Made by a program: the position numbers and the translations under genes. From a bacterium (GTDB taxonomy: Bacteria > J088 > JAWLBW01), in assembly GCA_041690355.1 (NCBI GenBank), contig JAWLHK010000002.1, positions 283,082 to 347,081 of the forward strand: 64,000 nucleotides of DNA. Reading direction: 5' to 3'. The notes under the pieces were generated by a model that saw only the letters and a program-made list of their open reading frames with translations, made no database searches and was not told the origin of the DNA. This document shows positions 518-34,692 of this stretch, one piece after another. Position 1 is the first letter of the stretch, and each line of letters begins with the position of its first letter.

Positions 518-565
518 GGCGGTTATTATATCCGCGCCGACCAACGGGCGCGACCCCCCACATCA

Positions 566-745
566 AGTTACGAGTTACGAGTGACGAGTGAACGAGTGAC
601 GAACACCTTACCGTTCGCCTCGAGCTTACGGACGAAGGCAGAGCCGGAGTCGACAGCGAGAGGTTGCGCAAACTGACGATTGACGATTTGGCGGAACGCG
701 CCCGCTGGCCCCCGTCCCTTGCTTCCTTGGCGCTCGGCGCTTGTC
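566..745. repeat. mosaic intergenic element, reverse orientation (TCACTCG array 566-605, AATCGTC units 675-688, AGCGCCG module 725-745)
   Basis: Tandem 7-bp units cgagtta/cgagtga, gacgatt x2 and ccttggcgctcggcgcttg; the reverse complement of 601-688 aligns with 10563-10650 with few mismatches. Confidence 0.8.
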
Positions 746-811
746 TTGTCCCCCGGCGGCGTTTGACGCTTGGCCGGCGTTCAGTGAGCAGCGGGTTTCT
801 CGTCTCGTGCG

Positions 812-4473: not shown

Positions 4474-4493
4474 GGCGGGCTGCACAGCCGCGC

Positions 4494-4710
4494 ATTCCTG
4501 ATTCCTGATTCCTGATTCTTGATTCTTGACTCCTTGAGCCGGAAGGTGAAGCGCCGAGCGCCGAGCGCTAAGCACCGAGGAAGGGCAAAGGTTTCATCGT
4601 CCTTGTCTGAAATCGTCAATTGTAAATCGTCAATCGTCAATTCCCGTGACTTGACGCGCGCCCGCCGACTCTATATTTTGACTCTTGACCCCTGACTCTC
4701 GACTCGCGAC
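4494..4710. repeat. mosaic intergenic element (ATTCCTG array 4494-4537, AGCGCCG module 4548-4580, AATCGTC array 4610-4645, GACTCTT-like array 4668-4710)
   Basis: Four distinct tandem heptamer arrays in a row between the FAD gene stop and the sterol-desaturase-family start. Confidence 0.8.
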
Positions 4711-4718
4711 GAAGAACC

Positions 4719-8139: not shown

Positions 8140-10431
8140 TCAGTTCGCGCGACTCGTCATCTCGAAGACGATCTCGCGGCTCGTGGTCAGCTCTTCGTGC
8201 TCGAGGTAGTGCCGGTTGATGCGCTTACCGTCCACGTAGACCGCGCCGACATAGATATTCTTCTCCGAAGTTCCCGGCGCGCGAATGGTGAGGGTGCGGC
8301 CATTCTCGAGGCGGATGACGGCCTTTTCGAAGATCGGCGTGCCGATCCAGTAGCGGGTCGTGGCGGGAATCGGATAGAAGCCGAGGGCGCTGAAGATGTA
8401 CCAGGCCGACAGCGTGCCGCCGTCGTCGTTGCCGTCGAGGCCGTCGGGACCCGTGCCGTAGCGGCTTTCCATGACCCACCGGATGACCGGCGCGCCGCGT
8501 TTCGGTTCGCCCCACATCGCATACAGGTAGGGGGCGTGCAGGTCGGGCTCGTTGCCGTGCCAGTAGTAGTTGTCGGGCATGCGGATATCGCCGAGATATG
8601 GCTTCGGCGTCTCCTGCGACTTCGTGAAGAAGTGGTCGAGCTTCGCCAGGGCCGCGTCGACGCCGCCGAGCAGCGTCGCCAGCTTCTCGACGTTCCACGG
8701 CACAAGCCAGAGGTACTGCCAGGCGTTGCCCTCGGTGTAATCGTCGGTGTGGTTGAGCGGGTCGAGGGCCGGTAGCGCCCAGGAGCCGTCTCGCTTTTTC
8801 GCGCGGAAAAAGCCGTTCTCCGCATCCCAGAGGGTGTCGAACGCGTCGGCCCGGTCTGCGAAGAACAGGGCGTCTTCTTCCTTGCCGATGGCCTGCGCGA
8901 ACCGGCTGATGGCAAAGTCGGCCCACATGTTTTCCTGCGTAACCGAAACGGAACCGTTGGTGTTGTCGGCGGTGCAGTGCCCGAGGGTGTTGTAATCGTC
9001 GACGCAGCGCCGCATGTTGTACGGGTCACCCCAGACGGCCGTCGAGACCATGAGCGCGTAGGCACGTTGCCAGTCGAAGTCGCGGATTCCCTTGAGATAG
9101 CTGTCTGCAATCACGATGTCGGCCGGGGTACCGATCATGGATGCCCCGTCACGGTGGGCGAAGGGCCAGCGGGGCAGGGAGCCGCGGGCGCGCCCCATTT
9201 CGACGAGTGAGCGCACGAAGTCGCGCTGATACGAGGGCGTCAGCCACGTCAGCAGCGGATGCAGCGTGCGGTAGGTATCCCACAGGCTCATGTCCGAGTA
9301 GAACTCGCTTCCGGCGTCGGCGGCGATGCTTCCGTCAAAGGCACGGTGGCGGCCGTTCACGTCGCTGTAGAGGCTCGGCATCTGCAGGGCATGGTAGAGG
9401 GCCGTGTAGAAGATTTCGCGCTGGTCGGGCGTGCCCCCTTCGACTTCAATCTGGTCGAGGCGGGTCTCCCAGACGGTGCGCGCCGCTTCGCGGATGTCGT
9501 CGAAGGTACGCCCGGCCGTTTCGACCGAGCGGTTCGCCTCGGCATCCCGGGCGCTCGTGAAGGAGATGCCGACGAAGACCTCGACCGGGGCCGACGGATC
9601 GAAGTGGAGATAGGCCCCCGTGCTTCCGCCGCTGCCGTCGGCGCGGGCGTTGATGCCGCGATCCTGGAGGGCGCCGCCGTCGGTGGTCGCGCTCCACACG
9701 CCGTACTTGCGGAAGGGCCTGCTGAAGACGGCATCCATGTAGATGGTGACGCCGCCGAAGCGCCCCGAAAAGGCGTTCCGCTGATGCAGGGAGCCGCGCA
9801 GCCGCTTCTCGCCGGGAAGGATCTCGATCTGGCTCCAGTCGACCTCGCCCGAAGAGAGCGTATGCCCGAGGTCGACCACGACGACGGCATCGGCGCCGGG
9901 GGGAAAGGTGTAGCGGTGCGCGCCGGTGCGCAGCGTGGCCGACAGCTCGGCGCGGATGGCCTGGGCCCGCTGTTCTTCATCGGCCGGATCGGAAACGCCC
10001 AGATCGACGGCGTAGTACCCCGGCTCGCCGACCTCGGCCCCGTGCGTAAAGGGGGCGCTGTATCCGCGCCAGCTCGTTTTCTCGGCGGTCATGCCGAGCG
10101 TGGGCATGAAGGTGACGTTGCCGTAATCGATGGCGCCGGTGCCGTGGACGTGCGTGTGGCTGAAGCCTTCGATGTGCGTATCGCCGTAGAAGTAGCCGGC
10201 GAAGTGCGCGAAGGTCTCCCGGCCGAAGAGTCCGCCCTGGGTGTCGGGGCTCAGTTTGACGAGGCCGAAGGGGAGGGCGGCGCCCGGGTAGCAGCTGCCG
10301 GCGCCGAACCCGGTGCCCCCCGTGCCGATGAAGACGTCGACCTCTTCGAACGGCGAGCGCCGCTCGGATTCGGGAAGCGGAGGGCAGGCGGCGAGCAGGA
10401 AAGCGAAAATCAGGAAGACGAATCGCATCAT
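8140..10431 (-). CDS. glycoside hydrolase family 92 (alpha-mannosidase-like), secreted/lipoprotein
   Basis: About 764 aa; signal peptide MRFVFLIFAFLLAAC; GH92 N-terminal signature VFIGTGGTGFGAGSCYPGAALPFGLVKLSPDT. Confidence 0.85.
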   Translation of the reverse strand: MMRFVFLIFAFLLAACPPLPESERRSPFEEVDVFIGTGGTGFGAGSCYPGAALPFGLVKLSPDTQGGLFGRETFAHFAGYFYGDTHIEGFSHTHVHGTGAIDYGNVTFMPTLGMTAEKTSWRGYSAPFTHGAEVGEPGYYAVDLGVSDPADEEQRAQAIRAELSATLRTGAHRYTFPPGADAVVVVDLGHTLSSGEVDWSQIEILPGEKRLRGSLHQRNAFSGRFGGVTIYMDAVFSRPFRKYGVWSATTDGGALQDRGINARADGSGGSTGAYLHFDPSAPVEVFVGISFTSARDAEANRSVETAGRTFDDIREAARTVWETRLDQIEVEGGTPDQREIFYTALYHALQMPSLYSDVNGRHRAFDGSIAADAGSEFYSDMSLWDTYRTLHPLLTWLTPSYQRDFVRSLVEMGRARGSLPRWPFAHRDGASMIGTPADIVIADSYLKGIRDFDWQRAYALMVSTAVWGDPYNMRRCVDDYNTLGHCTADNTNGSVSVTQENMWADFAISRFAQAIGKEEDALFFADRADAFDTLWDAENGFFRAKKRDGSWALPALDPLNHTDDYTEGNAWQYLWLVPWNVEKLATLLGGVDAALAKLDHFFTKSQETPKPYLGDIRMPDNYYWHGNEPDLHAPYLYAMWGEPKRGAPVIRWVMESRYGTGPDGLDGNDDGGTLSAWYIFSALGFYPIPATTRYWIGTPIFEKAVIRLENGRTLTIRAPGTSEKNIYVGAVYVDGKRINRHYLEHEELTTSREIVFEMTSRAN

Positions 10432-10494
10432 AGCGATGGATTCTACCATGGCGCGTCATTTCTGTAACGCGCTACTTGAGCGCCGGGCACCAGT

Positions 10495-10672
10495 CAAGCG
10501 CCGAGCGCCGAGCGCTGAGCGCCAAGGAAACAAGCACATGGGTATTTTCGGTACTTTCCGGTAAATCGTCAATCGTCAGTATGCGCAACCTCTCGCTGTC
10601 GACTCCGGCCCTGCCTTCGTCGGTCAGCTCGAGGCGAACGGGAATGTCACTCGTCACTCGTAACTCGTAACT
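10495..10672. repeat. mosaic intergenic element, forward orientation (AGCGCCG module 10495-10527, AATCGTC units 10563-10579, TCACTCG array 10647-10672)
   Basis: Same module order and internal unique sequence as the reverse-oriented element at 566-745. Confidence 0.8.
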
Positions 10673-10754
10673 TCGCGGAGCGCTCCCCCTTCCCCCCTTG
10701 GCAAGGGGACGCACTACAATAGGGAAGCGTGAACGCCGCCTCGAGGAGTTACCG

Positions 10755-11456
10755 ATGAAGAAATGGAAGACCCTGCCCCCCAACATCCGCCTCCGGCTCG
10801 TCGAACCGGGCGGCCATGCCTACGAATTGCCCCTGCTTCCGGCTGTGCTCGGGGGACCCGGGGCCGACATCGTGCTCGACCACCCGACGGTTTCGGCCGA
10901 ACACGCGCGCATCGAGCTGGCCGGCGGGGTGCTCGTGGTGCGCGACCTGGCTTCGCGCAAGGGGACCTGGGTGAACGGGCGCCGCGTGGGAGACGACCTG
11001 CGCGCGCTCGAACACGGCGACACGCTGGCGCTGGGCTCGGCCCTGCTGCGGGTGGATCTGCAGTCGGTGGCGCGTCAGCAAGGGCGCCGGGCGGTGGCGC
11101 CGCTGGCCGAAACCGTGCCCGCGGGCCACGAGGAGGCTCAGGAGGCGCACCGGTGGAGCACGGCCCGCAGCGTCTGGCTCGTGGTCAACTCCGGCGGCGG
11201 ACAGCAGCGGTTTCTGCTCGATCGCCCCGTGCAGACCATCGGCCGCCTGGCCGACATCCGCATTTCCGATCCCGCCTTGTCGCGGAAGCACCTCCAGGTT
11301 GAGATCCACCCCGATCGCGTCTGTCTGAAAGACCTGGCGAGCGCGAATGGAACCTATGTGGACGGCCACCGCATCTCCTACCTGGAGGTGGATGGAGAAG
11401 TGACGTTTTCGGCCGGCTCGGCCACGTTTCACCTCGTCGCCAACCAGCGCGCCTGA
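10755..11456 (+). CDS. FHA domain-containing protein (two FHA domains)
   Basis: Start at MKKWKTL with gaggag RBS; two FHA-like modules (…GTWVNGRRV… and …GTYVDGHRI…). Confidence 0.8.
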   Translation: MKKWKTLPPNIRLRLVEPGGHAYELPLLPAVLGGPGADIVLDHPTVSAEHARIELAGGVLVVRDLASRKGTWVNGRRVGDDLRALEHGDTLALGSALLRVDLQSVARQQGRRAVAPLAETVPAGHEEAQEAHRWSTARSVWLVVNSGGGQQRFLLDRPVQTIGRLADIRISDPALSRKHLQVEIHPDRVCLKDLASANGTYVDGHRISYLEVDGEVTFSAGSATFHLVANQRA

Positions 11457-15510: not shown

Positions 15511-15649
15511 GCCAAGCGCTGAGCACCGAGCGCCCATGAGGAACGAGAAACGTGATCAAGGTTCTTGCCTGGATTCGTCACTCGTCACTCGTAACTCGTA
15601 ACTCGGCACTTGCATAAATCGTCAATCGTCAATCGTAAATTGTAAATTC
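15511..15649. repeat. mosaic intergenic element (AGCGC module 15511-15535, caaggttcttgcc 15557-15569, TCACTCG array 15573-15606, AATCGTC array 15616-15649)
   Basis: Tandem heptamers as in the other elements; the AATCGTC array overlaps the last codons of the 15622..16008 gene. Confidence 0.8.
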
Positions 15650-16008
15650 TCCGGCTCCGCCGCCGCCGCCTCGATGGTTCCGCCCGGGGCCACCAGATAG
15701 AACCCGGCATCCCCGTCACCGTACTCCCCGGACGGATCCGACAGCAGCGGCGCCTGGATGCCGAACCGGTCGCACAGCGCGCGCGCTTCGGCTGGTTCGG
15801 CCGCCACGATCAGATAGACGTTCACGAAATCTTCGAGCAGCCAGTGGGCCACGCGCGCGGCCGCGGCTTCGAGCAGGCGCTCCTGTCTCGCACGGGGAAC
15901 AATGCCGACGACCGTGTGCCCGCGGGCGAAGATTTCGGCCAGATCGATGTTCCCCCCCTTGCTCGAAGCCAGACGGCGGGCGGGAAACGGCGTGCGGACG
16001 GCAATCAT
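15622..16008 (-). CDS. hypothetical protein with degenerate thioredoxin/peroxiredoxin-like segments (no CxxC)
   Basis: 128 aa from MIAVRTP; APLLSDPSGEYGDG and FYLVAPGGTIE resemble peroxiredoxin motifs but no catalytic Cys is present; C-terminal ENLQFTIDD is encoded by the heptamer array. Confidence 0.4.
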   Translation of the reverse strand: MIAVRTPFPARRLASSKGGNIDLAEIFARGHTVVGIVPRARQERLLEAAAARVAHWLLEDFVNVYLIVAAEPAEARALCDRFGIQAPLLSDPSGEYGDGDAGFYLVAPGGTIEAAAAEPENLQFTIDD

Positions 16009-16151
16009 TGGAGGGCGCTCGGGAAAGAGGTTCGTTCCGTTCCAGTATACGGAATTCCACCCGCGGTCGCCGCCGGAGGAGCGACGGTCGTGCATACTTT
16101 CGCTGCGGCGGGCGGGCGGCCGATTTGTCCGGGCATCCCCGCCGCGCTATC

Positions 16152-17396
16152 ATGACTGGCATGACAGCCTGGCAGGGAAAACAGGTTCTTCTCGGGGTGA
16201 GCGGCGGGATCGCCGCCTATCGCGCCGCCGAACTGGTGCGCCTTTTCGTCAAGGCCGGGGCGAGCGTGAACGTCGTCATGACGCGCAACGCCACCGAGTT
16301 CATCACGCCGCTCACGATGCAGACCCTGAGCGGAAATCCCGTACTTACGGACACCTTCGACCGGGAACAGGGAGCCGACATCAAGCATGTCTCGCTCCCC
16401 GACGAGGCGGATGTGATCGTGCTCGCGCCCGCCACGGCCAACCTCATCGGAAAGCTTGCGAACGGCATCGCCGACGACCTGCTGACGACCGCCCTGCTCG
16501 TGGCCCGCTGCCCCATCGTCATGGCGCCGGCCATGAACGTGCACATGTGGGATCACCCCGTCGTGCAGGAGAACCTCGCCCGGGTTCGCCGTATTCCCGG
16601 CCTTCGCGTCGTGGAACCCGTGGAGGGGCTGCTTGCCTGCGGCTGGGAGGGAAAGGGGAAGCTGGCGGAGCCGGAGGCCATTTTCCGGGCGGCGGGCGAG
16701 GCCCTGCGTCCTCGGGATCTGAGCGGCCGCAGCCTGGTGCTCACGGCCGGGCCGACGCGGGAATTCCTCGATCCGGTCCGCTACCTTTCGAATCCGTCCA
16801 CCGGCAAGATGGGGCTCGCCATCGCCGAGGCCGCCGCCGTGCGCGGGGCCGACGTGACCGTCGTGCTCGGGCCCACCGCCGAGAAGCCTCCGGCCGGGGT
16901 GCGCGTCCTTCGGGTCGAATCGGCCGCCGACATGTTCGAGGCCGCGCGCGCGGCCTTCGCAGACGCCCAGGTGTTCATCGCCTCGGCTGCCGTCGCCGAT
17001 TACACGCCGGCGGTGCGCGAAGACCGTAAAGTGAAGAAAAGCGAGGGGGATGTCGACGTACGCCTGACGCGCACGACCGACATCCTCAAGACGCTTGCCG
17101 CCGACAAGGGTGAGCGGATCGTCGTCGGCTTCGCGGCCGAGACGAACGACGTGGTCCGCTACGCGCGCGAGAAGCTTGTCGCCAAGAACTGCGATCTGGT
17201 CGTCGCCAACGACGTCACGGCGCCCGGAAGCGGGTTCGCCGTCGACACGAACCGGGCGATTCTGGTCGAACGGGAAGGCGAGACCGAGCTACCCCTGCTG
17301 ACCAAGCGTGAGATCGCCGACCGTATTCTCGATCGTGTCGTCGAGCTGCTTGCGCAGGGCGGCCGGATCGAGCGCCCTGAGCGCCACCGCGCCTGA
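16152..17396 (+). CDS. coaBC: bifunctional phosphopantothenoylcysteine decarboxylase / phosphopantothenate-cysteine ligase
   Basis: 414 aa from MTGMTAWQGK; flavoprotein N-domain (VLLGVSGGIAAYRAAEL) and CoaB C-domain (LVLTAGPTREFLDPVRYLSNPSTGKMG). Confidence 0.9.
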   Translation: MTGMTAWQGKQVLLGVSGGIAAYRAAELVRLFVKAGASVNVVMTRNATEFITPLTMQTLSGNPVLTDTFDREQGADIKHVSLPDEADVIVLAPATANLIGKLANGIADDLLTTALLVARCPIVMAPAMNVHMWDHPVVQENLARVRRIPGLRVVEPVEGLLACGWEGKGKLAEPEAIFRAAGEALRPRDLSGRSLVLTAGPTREFLDPVRYLSNPSTGKMGLAIAEAAAVRGADVTVVLGPTAEKPPAGVRVLRVESAADMFEAARAAFADAQVFIASAAVADYTPAVREDRKVKKSEGDVDVRLTRTTDILKTLAADKGERIVVGFAAETNDVVRYAREKLVAKNCDLVVANDVTAPGSGFAVDTNRAILVEREGETELPLLTKREIADRILDRVVELLAQGGRIERPERHRA

Positions 17397-17397
17397 A
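17318..17397. repeat. 80-bp direct repeat, copy 1 (3' end of coaBC)
   Basis: Matches 21988-22067 with 4 mismatches in 80 bp; encodes the CoaBC C-terminus on the plus strand. Confidence 0.85.
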
Positions 17398-21961: not shown

Positions 21962-22981
21962 CTAGGCCCGCGAGCCCGTGGGCGGCTCGACCGGATTCTC
22001 GACCGTGTCGTCGAGCTGCTTGCGCAGGGCGGCCGGATCGAGCGCCTTGAGCGCCATCGCGCCTGAACCCGGCACCCGGTCGGGATACCGGTTCGTCCAT
22101 GTACGCGCCGGAAAATCGAACTCCAGAATCGGCGCCAGCTCCTGAAAGTGCATGTCGGGATCAAACTCCGACTTGCGCCGCATGCGCCGGCCTTCCTTAT
22201 GCAGGCGCTGGGCCGTGTCGAGCATGCGCTGCCCGGTCGGATCGTTGTGGTAGGTATGCGAGCGATCCAGCTGATGCAGCATGTCGAAAATACTGTTCAT
22301 GGCCAGGTGATCGTAGCGGTGCGCGTCGGCGGCGTCGAACTGCCATGGTGAGCGCTGGTTCATGGAATTGAGCGCGCTGCGCCACTGCTTCATGTTCTGC
22401 ACGAACAGGGTCGAGTTGAAGATCATTTTGTTCACGCGGTGTGAAAAGATGGTCTCTTCGAGCTGCGACTGGAGCAGCGCGTCGTCGCGCGGATCCACCA
22501 GACGCTGAATACGGCCGGCCATGTCCCAGATCGGTTTCTGCGTCCGCCCGTCGTAGCGCACCTCCCAGTAGGCATGCTTGAATCCCCGCGGGGCGTCGCT
22601 GCGCAGGACCTGGGAGGGAATGAATATGTTGTGGGCGATCGTGTCGGCGGCCAGGTGGGTGATATAGCCCCACATGAAGGCTTTCTGCGGCTCGTCGGGG
22701 GCCTTTTCGAGCAGCTCGAAGGCGACGTCCCAGTTGTGGCAGTGCAGCCGGTAATCGATGTACTTCTTGCCCAGAATCAGATCGGCCGCCAGGTTCCCGT
22801 ACATGTAGTCGAACGAGTACGTGGCGAGCAGCGTGCGCAGGGCGACCGGCACCATCTCGAGGTTGATGAGGACCTCGCTCGCAAAGCGCAGATGCGTGGC
22901 GGGGCCCCAGGCCCATGCCGCGTCGGGCACGAGAAAAACGAGCAGAAAACCGATGAAGATGGACAAGAAAACCATGCGCAC
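21962..22981 (-). CDS. zinc-dependent phospholipase C family protein
   Basis: 339 aa; signal peptide; WGPATHLRF and GYITHLAADTIAHN metal-ligand motifs; last ~25 codons lie on the reverse strand of the 80-bp repeat. Confidence 0.65.
   Translation of the reverse strand: MRMVFLSIFIGFLLVFLVPDAAWAWGPATHLRFASEVLINLEMVPVALRTLLATYSFDYMYGNLAADLILGKKYIDYRLHCHNWDVAFELLEKAPDEPQKAFMWGYITHLAADTIAHNIFIPSQVLRSDAPRGFKHAYWEVRYDGRTQKPIWDMAGRIQRLVDPRDDALLQSQLEETIFSHRVNKMIFNSTLFVQNMKQWRSALNSMNQRSPWQFDAADAHRYDHLAMNSIFDMLHQLDRSHTYHNDPTGQRMLDTAQRLHKEGRRMRRKSEFDPDMHFQELAPILEFDFPARTWTNRYPDRVPGSGAMALKALDPAALRKQLDDTVENPVEPPTGSRA
21988..22067. repeat. 80-bp direct repeat, copy 2 (3' end of the phospholipase C-like gene, opposite strand)
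   Basis: Matches 17318-17397 with 4 mismatches. Confidence 0.85.
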
Positions 22982-27625: not shown

Positions 27626-27726
27626 GCGTTCGGGCCGGGCCCGAACGCTCATTCCTGATTCCTGATTCTTGATTCCTGACCGGAACGCCCAGCGACTGCC
27701 GGCTGAAGACTGCCGCCTGAAGACTG
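27620..27726. repeat. mosaic intergenic element (palindromic hairpin 27620-27654, ATTCCTG array 27651-27681, CAGTCTT-family units 27694-27726)
   Basis: Perfect palindrome tgagcgttcgggc/gcccgaacgctca overlapping the stop codon, then attcctg x4, then a duplicated ctgccgNctgaagactg. Confidence 0.75.
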
Positions 27727-30306
27727 TTATTCGTACTCGAGCGCCGAGATGATGTTCGTCTTCGCGGCCTTCCACCCCGGATAGATGCTGGCCAGCACCG
27801 AGACGACGAAGGCGAGCAGAAAGCCGCCGACGACGCTCTCGAGGGGGAACACGAACGGGGTCGTCCAGCCGATGACCTCGCGCAGCATGATCTTCGTGAT
27901 GATGGCCGTGAAGCCGACCCCCGCCAGCACACCGAAGCTTCCCGCCAGAATCCCCATGACCCCCGCCTCGTTCATGACCAGCTTCTGCAGCTGCCGGCGG
28001 GTGAAGCCGATGGCGCGCAGCATCCCCAGCTCGCGGGTGCGGTCGAGCACCGAGACCATGAGCGTGTTGATGATGCCGATGACGGCGATGATGATGGCGA
28101 TGATGTACATGACATCGGTGATGCGGAACGCCTGCTGGACGGCAGTCTGCACCTCGGTCTTGTACTCGGAGTTCGTCTGCAGCACGAGCCGGTAGTTTTT
28201 CCCGAACTTGGCCGTGATCGCATCCCGCACGGCGGCGATGTTGGCCCCCGGCTTGAGGAAGACGTCATAGCTGTCGACGCCGTTGTCCTGGAAGTACTTC
28301 TTGAAGGTCGACCGGTCCATGCCGATGACTCCCTGGTCGCTCATGTAATCCACGCGCACTCCCGCAATCGAGAAGTCGTGCGCTCCGGTGGGGGTCTTGA
28401 GGGAGACCTTGTCGCCGGCATGCAGATTGAACCGGTTCATGAAGTTCTCCGACACGTAGACTGAGTCGTTGCCGGTCACCGCGTCGTAGACCTTCTCCGC
28501 TTCGCCCTCGATCCAGATGCCCGGGCTGTACTTACGGTATTCGGGCATCTGCACGCTGTAGAGCACGATGCCCGTGCCGCCGTAGCTCTGGTTGATCATG
28601 CGGAAGCGGTTGACGTCGGCGACCCCGTCTACCTCGCGCAGAATGTCGTCGCCCAGGGTCTCGGGCATGTCGACGGCGTCGGGGCCGGGCAGGGCCGACG
28701 AGCTGCGGATGACCAGGTCGGCCGTGACCGACTGCTCGAGCCATTCGAGCACCGAGCTCTGAAAGCTGAGCATCGTACCCTTGACCGCGACGGCCAGCGA
28801 AATGCCAATCATGAGCGCGCTCACGGTCACGCTCGTGCGGCCGGGCGTACGCGTGAGGTTGTCGGCACCCAGCTTACCCTCGACGCTGAAGAGCTTGCGC
28901 AGAACCGGGCTGAAGAGGTCGCCGGCCACCACGATGAGAATCGGGGCGAGCAGCGTGAGGGCGAGAAAGCCGAGCATGCTCGATGCCGAACCGACGAAGG
29001 GATTATCGAGGAACTTCTGGGCGTACAGGCCTGCGAACTGCAGGCCGAACAGGGCGATGCCCATGTAGAAGTACTTCATGTACGCCTTGCGCTGGGTCGC
29101 CTCCATGGCCACGGGGCGCATGGCCTCGAGCGGCGACACCGTCGCGGCCTGGCGGGCCGGCGCGATGGCCGAAAGCACCGAGGTGCCGACGCCGAGCGCG
29201 ATGACGATGCCGATATGCAGCGGCGACATGGCGATCTGGTCGATGTTGATCTTGAAGTAAGCCGTGCTGATCGTCTGCGCAACGATGGACGTCAACTCGC
29301 GCGCCAGCAGAAAGCCCGAGAAGCTGCCGATGGTTGCCCCGATGAGGCCGAGCACGCCCGCCTCGACGATGAAGATGCCGCGGATCTGGGCCGCCGTCAC
29401 ACCGAGGGCGCGCATGATGCCGATCTCGCGGCGGCGCTGGGCGACGGCCATCGAGAAGGTGTTGTAGATGAGAAACATGCCGACGAAGAGCGACAGGGCG
29501 CTCATGATCGTGAGGATCTGCTGAAAGCTCTTGAGCATGTTCTCGACCTGCCCCGAGCGCGCGCCCGGATAGCCGATCTCGTACCCTTCGCCCAGCGTCT
29601 CGCGCAGACGCGAGACCACGGCCTCACGCTCTTCGGCGCCGGCGTTCGGGGCCAGGATGATGTCGATCTGATCGAGGCGCCCTTCGCGCTCGAGCACGGT
29701 CATGGCGCTGTAGACGTCCATGATCAGCAGGTTGCCGCCGAAGACCTTCGCGGCCCCTTTTTCTTCGAGAATCGCGCGCACGGTCAGCGTCTTGAGCCCC
29801 GCGCCGGTCACCAGGTTGATCGTGTCGTCCTTCTTGATGCCGTACCGGTTCGCGAGAACGTTGGTCATCAGCACGCTGTCGGGGCTGTTGAGAAACTGCA
29901 GGGCGTCGATTTCTTCGCCCTTGTGCTCGTCATCCTCAGCCGTGAAGGTGCGAAAGTCCTTGTCGGCGAAGGTGTCGACGCCGAGCAGAATGATCGTGTC
30001 TTCGGGGTTCGACTCGAGAAAGGCGCTCGTGCGGATGATCGGCGTGGCCTTGGCAACCCCTTCGACCTGGGTCACCTGCTCGTAGACGGCCTCTTCGAAG
30101 CCGCTGCGGCCGCGGCTGATCTCAATCTGCGCCCGCCCGGCGACGTTGTTGATCATCTGGCGGAAAGAGGTGAGCGTGGCGTCGTTGACGAGCATGATGC
30201 CCACGAAGACGGTGATGCCCAGGGCGATGCCGACGACGGTCAGCCCGGTGCGCAGCAGGTGAAGCGTGAAGTGGCGCAGGCTGACGTTGCGAAGGAAAAA
30301 GAGCAT
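27727..30306 (-). CDS. ABC transporter permease, FtsX-like (MacB/LolCE type)
   Basis: 859 aa with two FtsX-like TM bundles and large periplasmic domains. Confidence 0.9.
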   Translation of the reverse strand: MLFFLRNVSLRHFTLHLLRTGLTVVGIALGITVFVGIMLVNDATLTSFRQMINNVAGRAQIEISRGRSGFEEAVYEQVTQVEGVAKATPIIRTSAFLESNPEDTIILLGVDTFADKDFRTFTAEDDEHKGEEIDALQFLNSPDSVLMTNVLANRYGIKKDDTINLVTGAGLKTLTVRAILEEKGAAKVFGGNLLIMDVYSAMTVLEREGRLDQIDIILAPNAGAEEREAVVSRLRETLGEGYEIGYPGARSGQVENMLKSFQQILTIMSALSLFVGMFLIYNTFSMAVAQRRREIGIMRALGVTAAQIRGIFIVEAGVLGLIGATIGSFSGFLLARELTSIVAQTISTAYFKINIDQIAMSPLHIGIVIALGVGTSVLSAIAPARQAATVSPLEAMRPVAMEATQRKAYMKYFYMGIALFGLQFAGLYAQKFLDNPFVGSASSMLGFLALTLLAPILIVVAGDLFSPVLRKLFSVEGKLGADNLTRTPGRTSVTVSALMIGISLAVAVKGTMLSFQSSVLEWLEQSVTADLVIRSSSALPGPDAVDMPETLGDDILREVDGVADVNRFRMINQSYGGTGIVLYSVQMPEYRKYSPGIWIEGEAEKVYDAVTGNDSVYVSENFMNRFNLHAGDKVSLKTPTGAHDFSIAGVRVDYMSDQGVIGMDRSTFKKYFQDNGVDSYDVFLKPGANIAAVRDAITAKFGKNYRLVLQTNSEYKTEVQTAVQQAFRITDVMYIIAIIIAVIGIINTLMVSVLDRTRELGMLRAIGFTRRQLQKLVMNEAGVMGILAGSFGVLAGVGFTAIITKIMLREVIGWTTPFVFPLESVVGGFLLAFVVSVLASIYPGWKAAKTNIISALEYE

Positions 30307-33078: not shown

Positions 33079-33081
33079 AAA

Positions 33082-33332
33082 CAGTCTTCAGGCGTCAGTC
33101 TCCGGTCCTCAGTCGGAATTCGTCACTCGACACTCGATACCCGTCACTGAGTATTCGTCACTCGTCACTCGTCACTCACACAAAGCGCCAAGCGCTGAGC
33201 ACCGAGTGCTGACGAGGCAAGGGCGAAGTGTTTCAAGGTTCTTGCCGGAAACGCGTCACTCGTCACTCGTAACTGAACAAGGTTCTTGCCGCTCAATCGT
33301 CAATCGTCAATCGTAAATCGTCAATCGACGAG
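33082..33332. repeat. largest mosaic intergenic element (CAGTCTT-family 33082-33114, TCACTCG array 33117-33180, AGCGC module 33184-33217, caaggttcttgcc 33234-33246 and 33278-33290, TCACTCG 33251-33275, AATCGTC array 33293-33332)
   Basis: All module types in one spacer, beginning 4 bp after the sulfatase stop and ending next to a TATAAT box upstream of rseP. Confidence 0.8.
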
Positions 33333-33357
33333 TGGGGCGTAGTATAATGAGCGAATC

Positions 33358-34692
33358 ATGGGAATTCTGACATTCATCCTCGTGCTGGGGATTCTGATCT
33401 TCGTTCACGAGTTCGGCCACTTCTATTTCGCGAAACGCGCGGGCGTCGGCGTCGAACGTTTCTCCATCGGCTTCGGCCCCAAACTTTTCGGCTTCACGCG
33501 GGGCGAAACGGAGTACCGCGTCGCCGCCATTCCGCTCGGCGGCTACGTGAAGATGGTCGGCGACAATCCCGACGAGGCCCGGCAGGGGACCGAGAAGGAA
33601 TTTCTGAGCCGCCCCGTGCGCGACCGGCTGCCCATCGTGCTGGCGGGCCCCATCGTGAACCTGGCGCTCGCGTTCGTGCTCATGCCGCTGGTCTACCTGC
33701 TCGGCGTGCAGGTACCCGCCTTCGTTCAGGAAAAGCCGGTCATCGGGTATGTCGAGCCGGGGAGCCCGGCCGAGCGCGCCGGCCTGCAGACGGGGGACGA
33801 AATCGTCGCCATCAACGGCAAGCCGATGCCCGCCTGGGAAGACGTGCTCGCCTCGACCATGGCCGAGCCCGGCAAGACGATTCAGGTGCGGCTGACCCGC
33901 GGCGGCTCCAGCCTGCAGGTTCCCGTGCATCTCGAAACCGCCGAGAGCGGGGCCGCGGCCTTCGGCGTGCAGCCCCCGGCCGTGCCCGTCGTCGGGCAGG
34001 TCAATCCCGGATCTCCCGCCGCCCTGGCCGGCCTGCAGCCGGGCGACCGGATCACCAGCCTGAACGGGGTGCCGGTCGACCACTGGGTGGCCATGGCCGA
34101 ACGCATCCAGTCGCTGGGGACGCAGCCGATTGAAGTCGGCTTCGCGCGCGACGGGGGCGAGCAGCGCGTCATGCTCACCCCCGAGCGCATGGCCGACGCC
34201 GACCGGGTCATCATCGGCATCCAGCGCAGCGAAGACCTGGTCGAGGTGCAATACGGCTTCGTCGACGCTGTGCGCGAAGGTTCGCGCCGCGTCGTACAGA
34301 TGACGACCCAGACCTTCGACATCCTGGGCAAGCTGCTGACCGGACAGCTGGGGGTGAAGACCCTGGGCGGCCCGATCCGCATCGCGCAGGTGACGTCGGC
34401 GGCGGCCGAAAGCGGCCTCTCCGACGTGCTGTCGCTGATGGCGTTTCTCTCGTTGCAGCTCGGCATTCTGAACCTGCTGCCGTTTCCGGTGCTCGACGGC
34501 GGGCACGTGCTCTTCATGAGCATCGAGGCCATCCGCCGCCGTCCGCTGTCGCGGCGCGCGCTCGAAATTTCGACGCAGGTCGGCTTCGTGCTGCTGCTCG
34601 TGCTCATGGTCGTCGTGACCAAGAACGACATCATGCACGCCTGGGGTCCGCAGATCGAGCGCATGTTCGACACGGTCCGTAATCTGTTCTGA
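33358..34692 (+). CDS. rseP: RIP metalloprotease RseP (site-2 protease)
   Basis: 444 aa; HEFGH zinc motif in TM1, PDZ region, C-terminal TM helices. Confidence 0.9.
   Translation: MGILTFILVLGILIFVHEFGHFYFAKRAGVGVERFSIGFGPKLFGFTRGETEYRVAAIPLGGYVKMVGDNPDEARQGTEKEFLSRPVRDRLPIVLAGPIVNLALAFVLMPLVYLLGVQVPAFVQEKPVIGYVEPGSPAERAGLQTGDEIVAINGKPMPAWEDVLASTMAEPGKTIQVRLTRGGSSLQVPVHLETAESGAAAFGVQPPAVPVVGQVNPGSPAALAGLQPGDRITSLNGVPVDHWVAMAERIQSLGTQPIEVGFARDGGEQRVMLTPERMADADRVIIGIQRSEDLVEVQYGFVDAVREGSRRVVQMTTQTFDILGKLLTGQLGVKTLGGPIRIAQVTSAAAESGLSDVLSLMAFLSLQLGILNLLPFPVLDGGHVLFMSIEAIRRRPLSRRALEISTQVGFVLLLVLMVVVTKNDIMHAWGPQIERMFDTVRNLF

Follow-up and report, generated by a model that had tools for sequence, protein, structure and literature searches.

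The 64,000-nucleotide (nt) stretch of DNA analysed here (the window) comes from an uncultured bacterium of the GTDB lineage J088 (assembly GCA_041690355.1, contig JAWLHK010000002.1, positions 283,082 to 347,081) and contains divergently transcribed genes for a GH92 protein (8140-10431, minus strand, with the start at 10431 confirmed by exact look-up) and a double-FHA protein (10755-11456, plus strand). Between these genes lies an intergenic element of about 210 bases that is composed of 7-base tandem-repeat runs (copy B, 10466-10673, plus strand), and a second copy (copy A, 565-797, minus strand) is found between the genes for RuvX (minus strand) and BipA/TypA (plus strand). The initial annotation had reported the pair at 10495-10672 and 566-745 and had placed the element between the divergent GH92 and FHA genes. 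The gene calls bear out this placement, and the pair is real, with local and MAFFT alignments extending the homology to B 10466-10673 (plus strand) against A 797-565 (minus strand), that is, in inverted orientation. Both copies belong to a set of five composites in the window that share a single frame of heptanucleotide arrays, which we interpret as the probable result of a lineage-specific expansion of intergenic repeats.

From position 10493, copy B consists of a GAGCGCY array of approximately four units (10493-10523; Tandem Repeats Finder (TRF) period 7 and five-site alignment), the purine-rich anchor CCAAGGAAAC(AA) (10524-10533), which is also present in copy A and is RGGAA-like in the other members, a variable block of 28 nt (10534-10561) that holds a 10-nt tandem repeat, GGTAYTTTYC (TRF period 10), two AATCGTC units (10564-10578; TRF and array scan), a non-repetitive core of 65 nt (10579-10645) that is special to the A/B pair, and an ACTCGTC/ACTCGTA array (10646-10673), all read on the plus strand. 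The corresponding parts of copy A, on the minus strand, are the variable block at 691-718, the core at 607-673 and the ACTCGTM array at 565-604 (TRF and alignments). Outside the variable block the ungapped flanks are identical at 125 of 133 positions (94%), the core is approximately 92% identical (61/66, with five differences over 10579-10644), and a repeat search of the window returns inverted-repeat arms at 605-696 and 10556-10647 (92 nt, 91%). The window holds exactly two copies of a 23-mer from the core, compared with 0.00 expected in shuffled sequence, and an exact search with it found no further core copies in genome_contigs, metagenome_contigs or the rest of the window. The statement in the initial annotation that the copies otherwise agree closely thus holds for the ungapped flanks, but not for a second replaced stretch inside the GAGCGCC array (approximately 15 nt in A versus 7 nt in B) or for the ACTCGTM array, which is longer in A by 14 nt, exactly two units, both differences being seen in the MAFFT and the local alignments. 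Given that the core is so similar and that the ACTCGTC/ACTCGTA array of B is identical to A 591-565 at 27 of 27 positions, including the order of the unit variants, we take the two copies to be of common descent.

The variable block is the exception to this similarity, with only 12 of 28 positions identical between B 10534-10561 and A 718-691 (Fisher p = 2.6e-9 against the 125/133 of the flanks). As A and B stay in register on either side of the block, it measures 28 nt in each, and this equal length argues against an insertion in one copy. The block had been described as roughly 30 bp that differ completely; it is real, although a 3' TTCCG and a GGG are common to both versions. In 11 of the 16 differences a G or C in A stands against an A or T in B, and the GC content of the block is 86% in A versus 50% in B. 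A search of the rest of the window and of 143 fetched loci found neither version. Mutagenesis of the type performed by diversity-generating retroelements was considered for the block and rejected, given that the differences are not limited to adenines.

Heptamer arrays are a general feature of the first 34 kb of the window. With TRF and our own scan, 14 strong period-7 tandem arrays are found in the window, whereas periods of 4-6 and 8-12 give 0-1 each, and Markov-1 simulations average 0.18 and never exceed 2. Our own scan locates 18 arrays between called genes, and TRF reports period-7 arrays of 2-8 units at seven sites (565-797, 2716-2830, 4489-4712, 10466-10673, 15511-15648, 27646-27728 and 33080-33327). 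In the gene map, which is a rough one based on a filter on third-position GC content and Pfam, every multi-unit array of the named families is located in a gap, and a possible minus-strand open reading frame (ORF) would overlap the array at 15622-15648. The gaps are divergent, tandem and convergent alike, hence the arrays are not tied to one type of signal, and they are located from tens of nucleotides to approximately 180 nt upstream of genes and also at 3' ends. A chain of single-base steps connects the units AATTGTA, AATCGTA, AATCGTC, ACTCGTC and ACTCGTA, another connects ATTCCTG, ATTCTTG and ACTCTTG, and the other units are ATTCGTC, GAGCGCC/GAGCGCT/GAGCACC and GACTGCC/GCCTGAA. This small set of arrays is reused in varying orders and orientations at the seven sites, although single-base-step links among the units fit slippage and mutation as well as they fit shuffling.

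Five of these mosaics are composites that share one frame, with the order and orientation the same in 5/5: a GAGCGCY array, an RGGAA-like anchor, a spacer of 27-37 nt and an AMTCGTM array. Copies A and B are two of them. The third (4546-4641) has a GAGCGCY array, GAGGAA, a 27-nt spacer and an AATCGTC/AATTGTA array; the fourth (15511-15648) has a GAGCRCY array, GAGGAA, a spacer, an ACTCGTM array and an AATCGTC array; and the fifth (33187-33327) has a GAGCRCY array, a spacer, an ACTCGTM array, a further spacer and an AATCGTC array, all three on the plus strand. The variable block occupies the position of the spacer, which differs among the five members except for TCAAGGTTCTTGCC, common to two. 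As the five sites share one frame with spacers that cannot be aligned, the block singled out in the initial annotation is the spacer of a five-member family. Its proposal of module shuffling rather than point-mutation drift survives in part: drift at the rate of the flanks cannot explain the block, and the window is mosaic, but the block itself is not a shuffled module.

The remaining arrays lie outside this frame. Directly 3' of the BipA stop codon, an inverted pair spans 2716-2830, with (GACGATT)n at 2716-2749 and (AATCGTC/AATTGTA)n at 2795-2830 separated by approximately 45 nt. TRF places an ATTCCTG/ATTCTTG array at 4489-4536, an ATTCCTG array followed by a 14-nt GACTGCC/GCCTGAA array in a convergent-gene gap at 27646-27728, and CAGTCTY and ATTCGTC/ACTCGTC arrays at 33080-33183, upstream of the fifth composite, all on the plus strand. 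At 27626-27652, at the end of a plus-strand gene and immediately before the ATTCCTG array, there is a perfect 13+13 palindrome, GAGCGTTCGGGCC/GGGCCCGAACGCTC, which is terminator-like but without a T-run. The spacer regions of the fourth and fifth composites (15511-15590 and 33187-33270) are the only ones with modestly stable folds (z = -2.5 and -1.6); in these the purine-rich anchor (GAGGAACGAG or ACGAGG) pairs with the downstream ACTCGTC array, and the shared TCAAGGTTCTTGCC is present in both. This pairing is not seen in copies A and B. Nearly all heptamer families, with the exception of plain GAGCGCC, carry TGA or TAA on one strand (for example at 10646-10673, 4494-4529 and 2722-2744), and since 7 mod 3 is 1, three or more units close all three frames on the stop-bearing strand; for the AT-richer units this stop content may be coincidence. 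The possible minus-strand ORF at 15622-16095 would take its TGA from the AATCGTC array (...GEFTIYD*), which would then form its C-terminus if the ORF is real. Separately from the heptamers, a direct repeat of 80 nt with 95% identity is found at 17318-17397 and 21988-22067, in or near coding sequence.

Comparison with relatives indicates that the arrays are additions to an older gene arrangement. The proteins of the source contig are singletons at 90% identity, the best named BipA matches have 66% identity, and a BipA search of genome_contigs returns only distant relatives with at most 59% identity. Metagenome contigs L018-L021 are closer, with a BipA identity of 77-80%, and keep the order RuvX, BipA, FAD-dependent protein, (TetR), fatty-acid hydroxylase, and no period-7 arrays are found in them. 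The RuvX-BipA gap is approximately 215 nt in the relatives versus 370 nt in the window, and the gap between BipA and the FAD-dependent gene is 19-57 nt in L018 and L019 versus 145 nt in the window, where the inverted arrays form a clean insertion between the BipA stop codon and a hairpin-plus-Shine-Dalgarno motif that is conserved in the relatives. As the arrays are missing from close relatives in which the gene order is kept, they can be interpreted as recent insertions. The conserved motif upstream of the FAD-dependent gene is a small hairpin with a Shine-Dalgarno sequence, TGCCCGATAACTGCGGGCCAGGAGCA (2833-2856), for which alignment to L018 and L021 includes one compensatory pair (C-G versus T-A), and this stem-loop may be cis-regulatory. 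At the same spot after the BipA stop, L021 has an unrelated GC-rich palindrome of 70 nt and L018 and L019 have nothing; the spot seems to accept hairpin-forming insertions. Further downstream, L018 and L019 have a TetR-family gene after the FAD-dependent gene, followed in L018 by the fatty-acid hydroxylase, whereas the window has no TetR gene there and instead a 245-nt spacer (4474-4718) that is dense with ATTCCTG, GAGCGCC, AATCGTC and ACTCTTG arrays.

The FHA side of copy B can be compared in the same way. Two relatives without the element (51-53% protein identity) have GAGCGCT, CCTTCCCCCC, approximately 17 nt and then TACAAT or TATACT, and the window has the same block at 10678-10720 on the plus strand, with TACAAT at 10715-10720. 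This conservation begins at 10678 and the element ends at 10673, hence the element is an insertion upstream of an older promoter region. For GH92, a promoter-like site lies at 10440-10468 on the minus strand (GTTACA, 17 nt and a TG-extended TAGAAT at 10445-10440, 8 nt before the ATG) and overlaps the left end of the element by only 3 nt of the predicted -35 box. At the other copy, the candidate -10 box of BipA, TGGTAGAAT at 827-835, is outside the element in a region that aligns with the relatives, and the candidate -10 box of RuvX, TATAAT at 530-525, 7 nt before the ATG, is also outside. From the positions of these predicted boxes, it is unlikely that the element carries the promoters of BipA, RuvX or GH92. 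TATAAT or TAGAAT boxes 7-13 nt before the starts of RuvX (525-530, minus strand), GH92 (10440-10448, minus strand) and the gene at 33359 (33340-33345, plus strand) suggest that this organism may use leaderless or near-leaderless transcripts.

Copy B does contain one promoter-like site of its own, at 10544-10572 on the minus strand and directed toward GH92, in which TTGACG from the GACGATT array is followed by 17 nt and GAAAAT from the variable block. It matches the consensus at 9/12 positions, the promoter scan that found it gave 2 sites in 600 nt versus 0.1 expected, and a corresponding scan of copy A found no counterpart. We regard this predicted site as a lead and not as a finding. The idea that the arrays act as a portable -35 box in general was rejected after the GACGATT strand of all six arrays had been checked by eye, as only that of copy B pairs with a -10-like hexamer and none of the other five does.

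Units of the same sequence are not confined to this organism. A scan for (AMTCGTM)3 returns at least 120 metagenome contigs with a GC content of 35-69%, and among the matches listed many contigs have several heptamer families side by side, approximately 17% of the arrays are accompanied by an inverted partner no more than 250 nt away, and some arrays may fall in coding sequence. The contigs among the matches listed are not relatives of this organism and have neither the core nor the GAGCGCY frame. One unrelated contig (L075, 43% GC) contains at 2111-2137 a 27-nt array, TCACTCGTCACTCGTAACTCGTAACT, that is identical to that of copy B, including the order of the C/A variants, and a second similar array 350 nt from it.

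Heptanucleotide tandem repeats were first seen in cyanobacteria around 1990, and Cyanobacteria have several heptamer families, known as short tandemly repeated repetitive (STRR) sequences. The units of STRR1-3 are presumably unrelated to those of the window. As here, STRR and other long simple sequence repeats (SSRs) consist of tandem 7-nt units with several families per genome, are mostly intergenic, produce a period-7 excess, are distributed sporadically by lineage and have no established function. In contrast to STRR, the host in the present case is a high-GC (65%), uncultured and non-cyanobacterial organism, and the arrays are short (2-6 units) and set in a recurring multi-array frame, one of which has a 65-nt core at two loci. 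In the majority of bacterial genomes heptanucleotides form the most abundant class of long SSR, for which an origin by polymerase slippage has been proposed (Mrazek 2007, as reported in PMC4679880 and PMC4692102). In Geobacter metallireducens, four tandem GGACCGG units are found at 49 sites, 15 of 16 class 3 sites have five tandem MTYCTGA units, and these elements have been proposed as global regulatory elements, with no experimental proof (PMC2700814). They resemble the present arrays in being short runs of 4-5 heptamers at many dispersed sites, and ATTCCTG/ATTCTTG rotated to TTCCTGA matches MTYCTGA at 6/7 positions; however, the Geobacter elements are single-family arrays both within and between genes, the window holds multi-family mosaics, and the two have no common flanking sequence.

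TAACTGA direct repeats occur in marine Beggiatoaceae, some Cyanobacteria and some Bacteroidetes (PMC4679880) and are likewise intergenic, in 2-6 copies, spread over distant lineages, often just upstream of starts, occasionally in inverted pairs and provided with stop codons. They are made of a single dominant unit within a few nucleotides of the start codon, whereas here at least six units are used, at tens to approximately 180 nt upstream and also at 3' ends. GGGAATC repeats in Xanthomonas and GGGGAYT repeats in Nostoc vary in length and sequence between close relatives while the locus stays constant (PMC4692102); these too are intergenic heptamer SSRs with some inverted pairs, but their G-rich units can form G-quadruplexes and the units of the window lack G-runs. 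The repetitive extragenic palindromic (REP) sequences and bacterial interspersed mosaic elements (BIMEs) of Escherichia coli are also intergenic mosaics of a few short motif types in varied order, and the inverted pair after the BipA stop sits where a REP-like hairpin would in a 3' untranslated region (UTR). However, REP units are imperfect palindromes of approximately 35 nt and not tandem heptamers, copies A and B have no significant hairpin, and the only inverted pair is the separate site at 2716-2830. A REP-associated transposase (RAYT) was not seen either, although no search was aimed at one. None of the units in the window (AATCGTC, ACTCGTM, GAGCGCY, ATTCCTG, GACTGCC and ACTCTTG) equals the published TAACTGA or GGGAATC-type units, and none of its unit arrays was found in the searchable literature. 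The element belongs to a known but poorly understood kind of heptamer repeat.

The explanation that we favour, with moderate confidence, is a lineage-specific expansion of slippage-prone intergenic heptamer arrays of the STRR and long-SSR kind, in which one composite was duplicated. AATCGTC/AATTGTA, ACTCGTC/ACTCGTA, ATTCCTG/ATTCTTG/ACTCTTG and GAGCGCY units would have expanded in intergenic DNA and would commonly have assembled as a GAGCGCY array, RGGAA, a non-conserved spacer and an AMTCGTM array. The composite with the 65-nt core would then have been copied in inverted orientation to a second intergenic site, probably by duplication or recombination, after which the copies would have diverged by gain or loss of whole units (the 14-nt indel) and by approximately 6% point substitutions. 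The spacer, as presumably the least constrained part, would have been replaced locally or turned over fast, giving rise to the 28-nt block. The arrays would have come to lie upstream of, and outside, pre-existing promoters, and any regulatory effect would be a side effect, such as that of the TTGACG of the GACGATT strand together with the AT-rich spacer in copy B. The arrays themselves are most likely neutral or weakly functional DNA. We infer slippage as the generator from its signature, an A/B indel of two whole units and units one base step apart within arrays, and a duplication origin of the pair and the lack of a dedicated function are likewise part of this interpretation. Several points weigh against it. 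Slippage leaves the equal-length, GC-to-AT-biased replacement of 28 nt unexplained, and no donor sequence turned up in the window or the 143 loci. The uniform order and orientation of all five composites suggest constraint or copying of whole elements rather than independent births of arrays. Neutrality is an assumption, and binding of a regulator has been proposed for comparable repeats in Geobacter (PMC2700814) and Beggiatoaceae (PMC4679880). As two core copies were examined, the behaviour across the genome is extrapolated from 64 kb.

The same fixed order and orientation would be expected if the arrays were binding sites for a lineage-specific DNA- or RNA-binding regulator, serving as multivalent operators or 5'-UTR sites, with the composite as a regulatory cassette before many genes. 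This is an unlikely but serious alternative: in both copies the ACTCGTM end points toward a gene (RuvX for A and FHA for B) and comes within 30-45 nt of its -10 box on the upstream side, a position suited to an activator or an UP element, and several AATCGTC arrays stop 30-80 nt before start codons, in line with the proposals for the Geobacter heptamers and the Beggiatoaceae TAACTGA repeats. However, some arrays lie at 3' ends, between convergent genes or antisense to transcription, neither copy numbers nor unit variants follow a regular pattern, a contiguous period of 7 bp puts successive sites on different faces of the helix, no candidate binding protein was identified, and the relatives regulate the same genes without arrays. 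It is quite improbable that the composite is a high-copy functional element of this lineage, together with the related possibility that A and B delimit an inversion; as inverted copies they bound a 10-kb segment from BipA to GH92 that could invert by recombination. The initial annotation had suggested that the element may carry the promoters of the divergent genes, a view that is contradicted for FHA, whose -10 box and upstream block are conserved outside the element, and unlikely for GH92, for which a separate TG-extended -10 box is predicted 8 nt before the start codon, while for BipA and RuvX the candidate boxes are found next to the genes. A weaker form of this view is that the block substitution in B created a second GH92 promoter from the TTGACG-17 nt-GAAAAT site that A lacks, but a consensus match is not evidence of function, and we consider both forms highly improbable.

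Spread as a unit by a non-autonomous mobile element, similar to a BIME or a miniature inverted-repeat transposable element (MITE), would account for two dispersed copies in unrelated contexts with sharp homology boundaries, for the same modules in different combinations at seven sites and for the appearance of both copies as inserted relative to the relatives; in this scenario the modules recombine and the 28-nt block is exchanged as a cassette. We find this doubtful, somewhat more so than binding by a regulator. By eye, at the ends defined by alignment, neither copy has terminal inverted repeats or target-site duplications at its ends or flanks, the flanks are unique, no transposase is linked to the element, blastn found no match to it in plasmid and phage collections, the genome and metagenome collections yield no copy of the core, and the absence of either block version from the window and the 143 loci leaves no evidence for a pool of exchangeable cassettes. 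A transposon or MITE was set aside as improbable on the lack of terminal inverted repeats, target-site duplications and plasmid or phage matches. The core is far better conserved than the spacer, which would also be the pattern of a small RNA or protein with the core as a constant scaffold and the block as a targeting or seed segment. On the minus strand of B, one frame gives the same peptide in both copies ([19 protein letters not shown][I/K]LTIDDL), three of the five core differences are at third codon positions and the per-position GC pattern is coding-like, although three of five at third positions is expected by chance in approximately one of three cases over all frames. The frame has no Pfam match, HMMER gave only a tandem-repeat protein with 27-30% identity and a score summed over nine weak matches, the open frame of copy A has no start codon on reading of the translations, and the heptamer arrays put stops in all three frames; hence coding sequence was rejected, the tandem-repeat protein being unrelated. 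On the RNA side, shuffled sequences fold as well as the element and the core do, in both copies and on both strands (z from -0.8 to +0.6), a consensus fold of all five members reaches a negligible -1.1 kcal/mol with one covarying pair, and Rfam gave no match at the gathering score or at E <= 1, on which grounds a structured RNA was rejected. There are no terminator-like hairpins within either copy except for one short, weak stem in A (729-741), and these scans were not above shuffled sequence. A small RNA or protein is therefore about as improbable an explanation as the promoters.

If the composite were a functional element after all, a dedicated DNA- or RNA-binding protein would read the arrays, the spacer of approximately 28 nt would be a variable address for each locus, and many unrelated genes would be joined by the arrays into a single regulatory network. 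For annotation, the regions should be treated neither as RNA genes or small ORFs nor as promoters, a role that the comparison with relatives contradicts for FHA and that is unlikely for GH92, BipA and RuvX. With its repeated multi-array frame and its duplicated core, the window provides markers by which spread of these repeats as units can be distinguished from their arising in place. The window is hence a clean case of heptamer repeats in an uncultured high-GC lineage, in which an effect on promoters can be tested by comparison with the array-free relatives.

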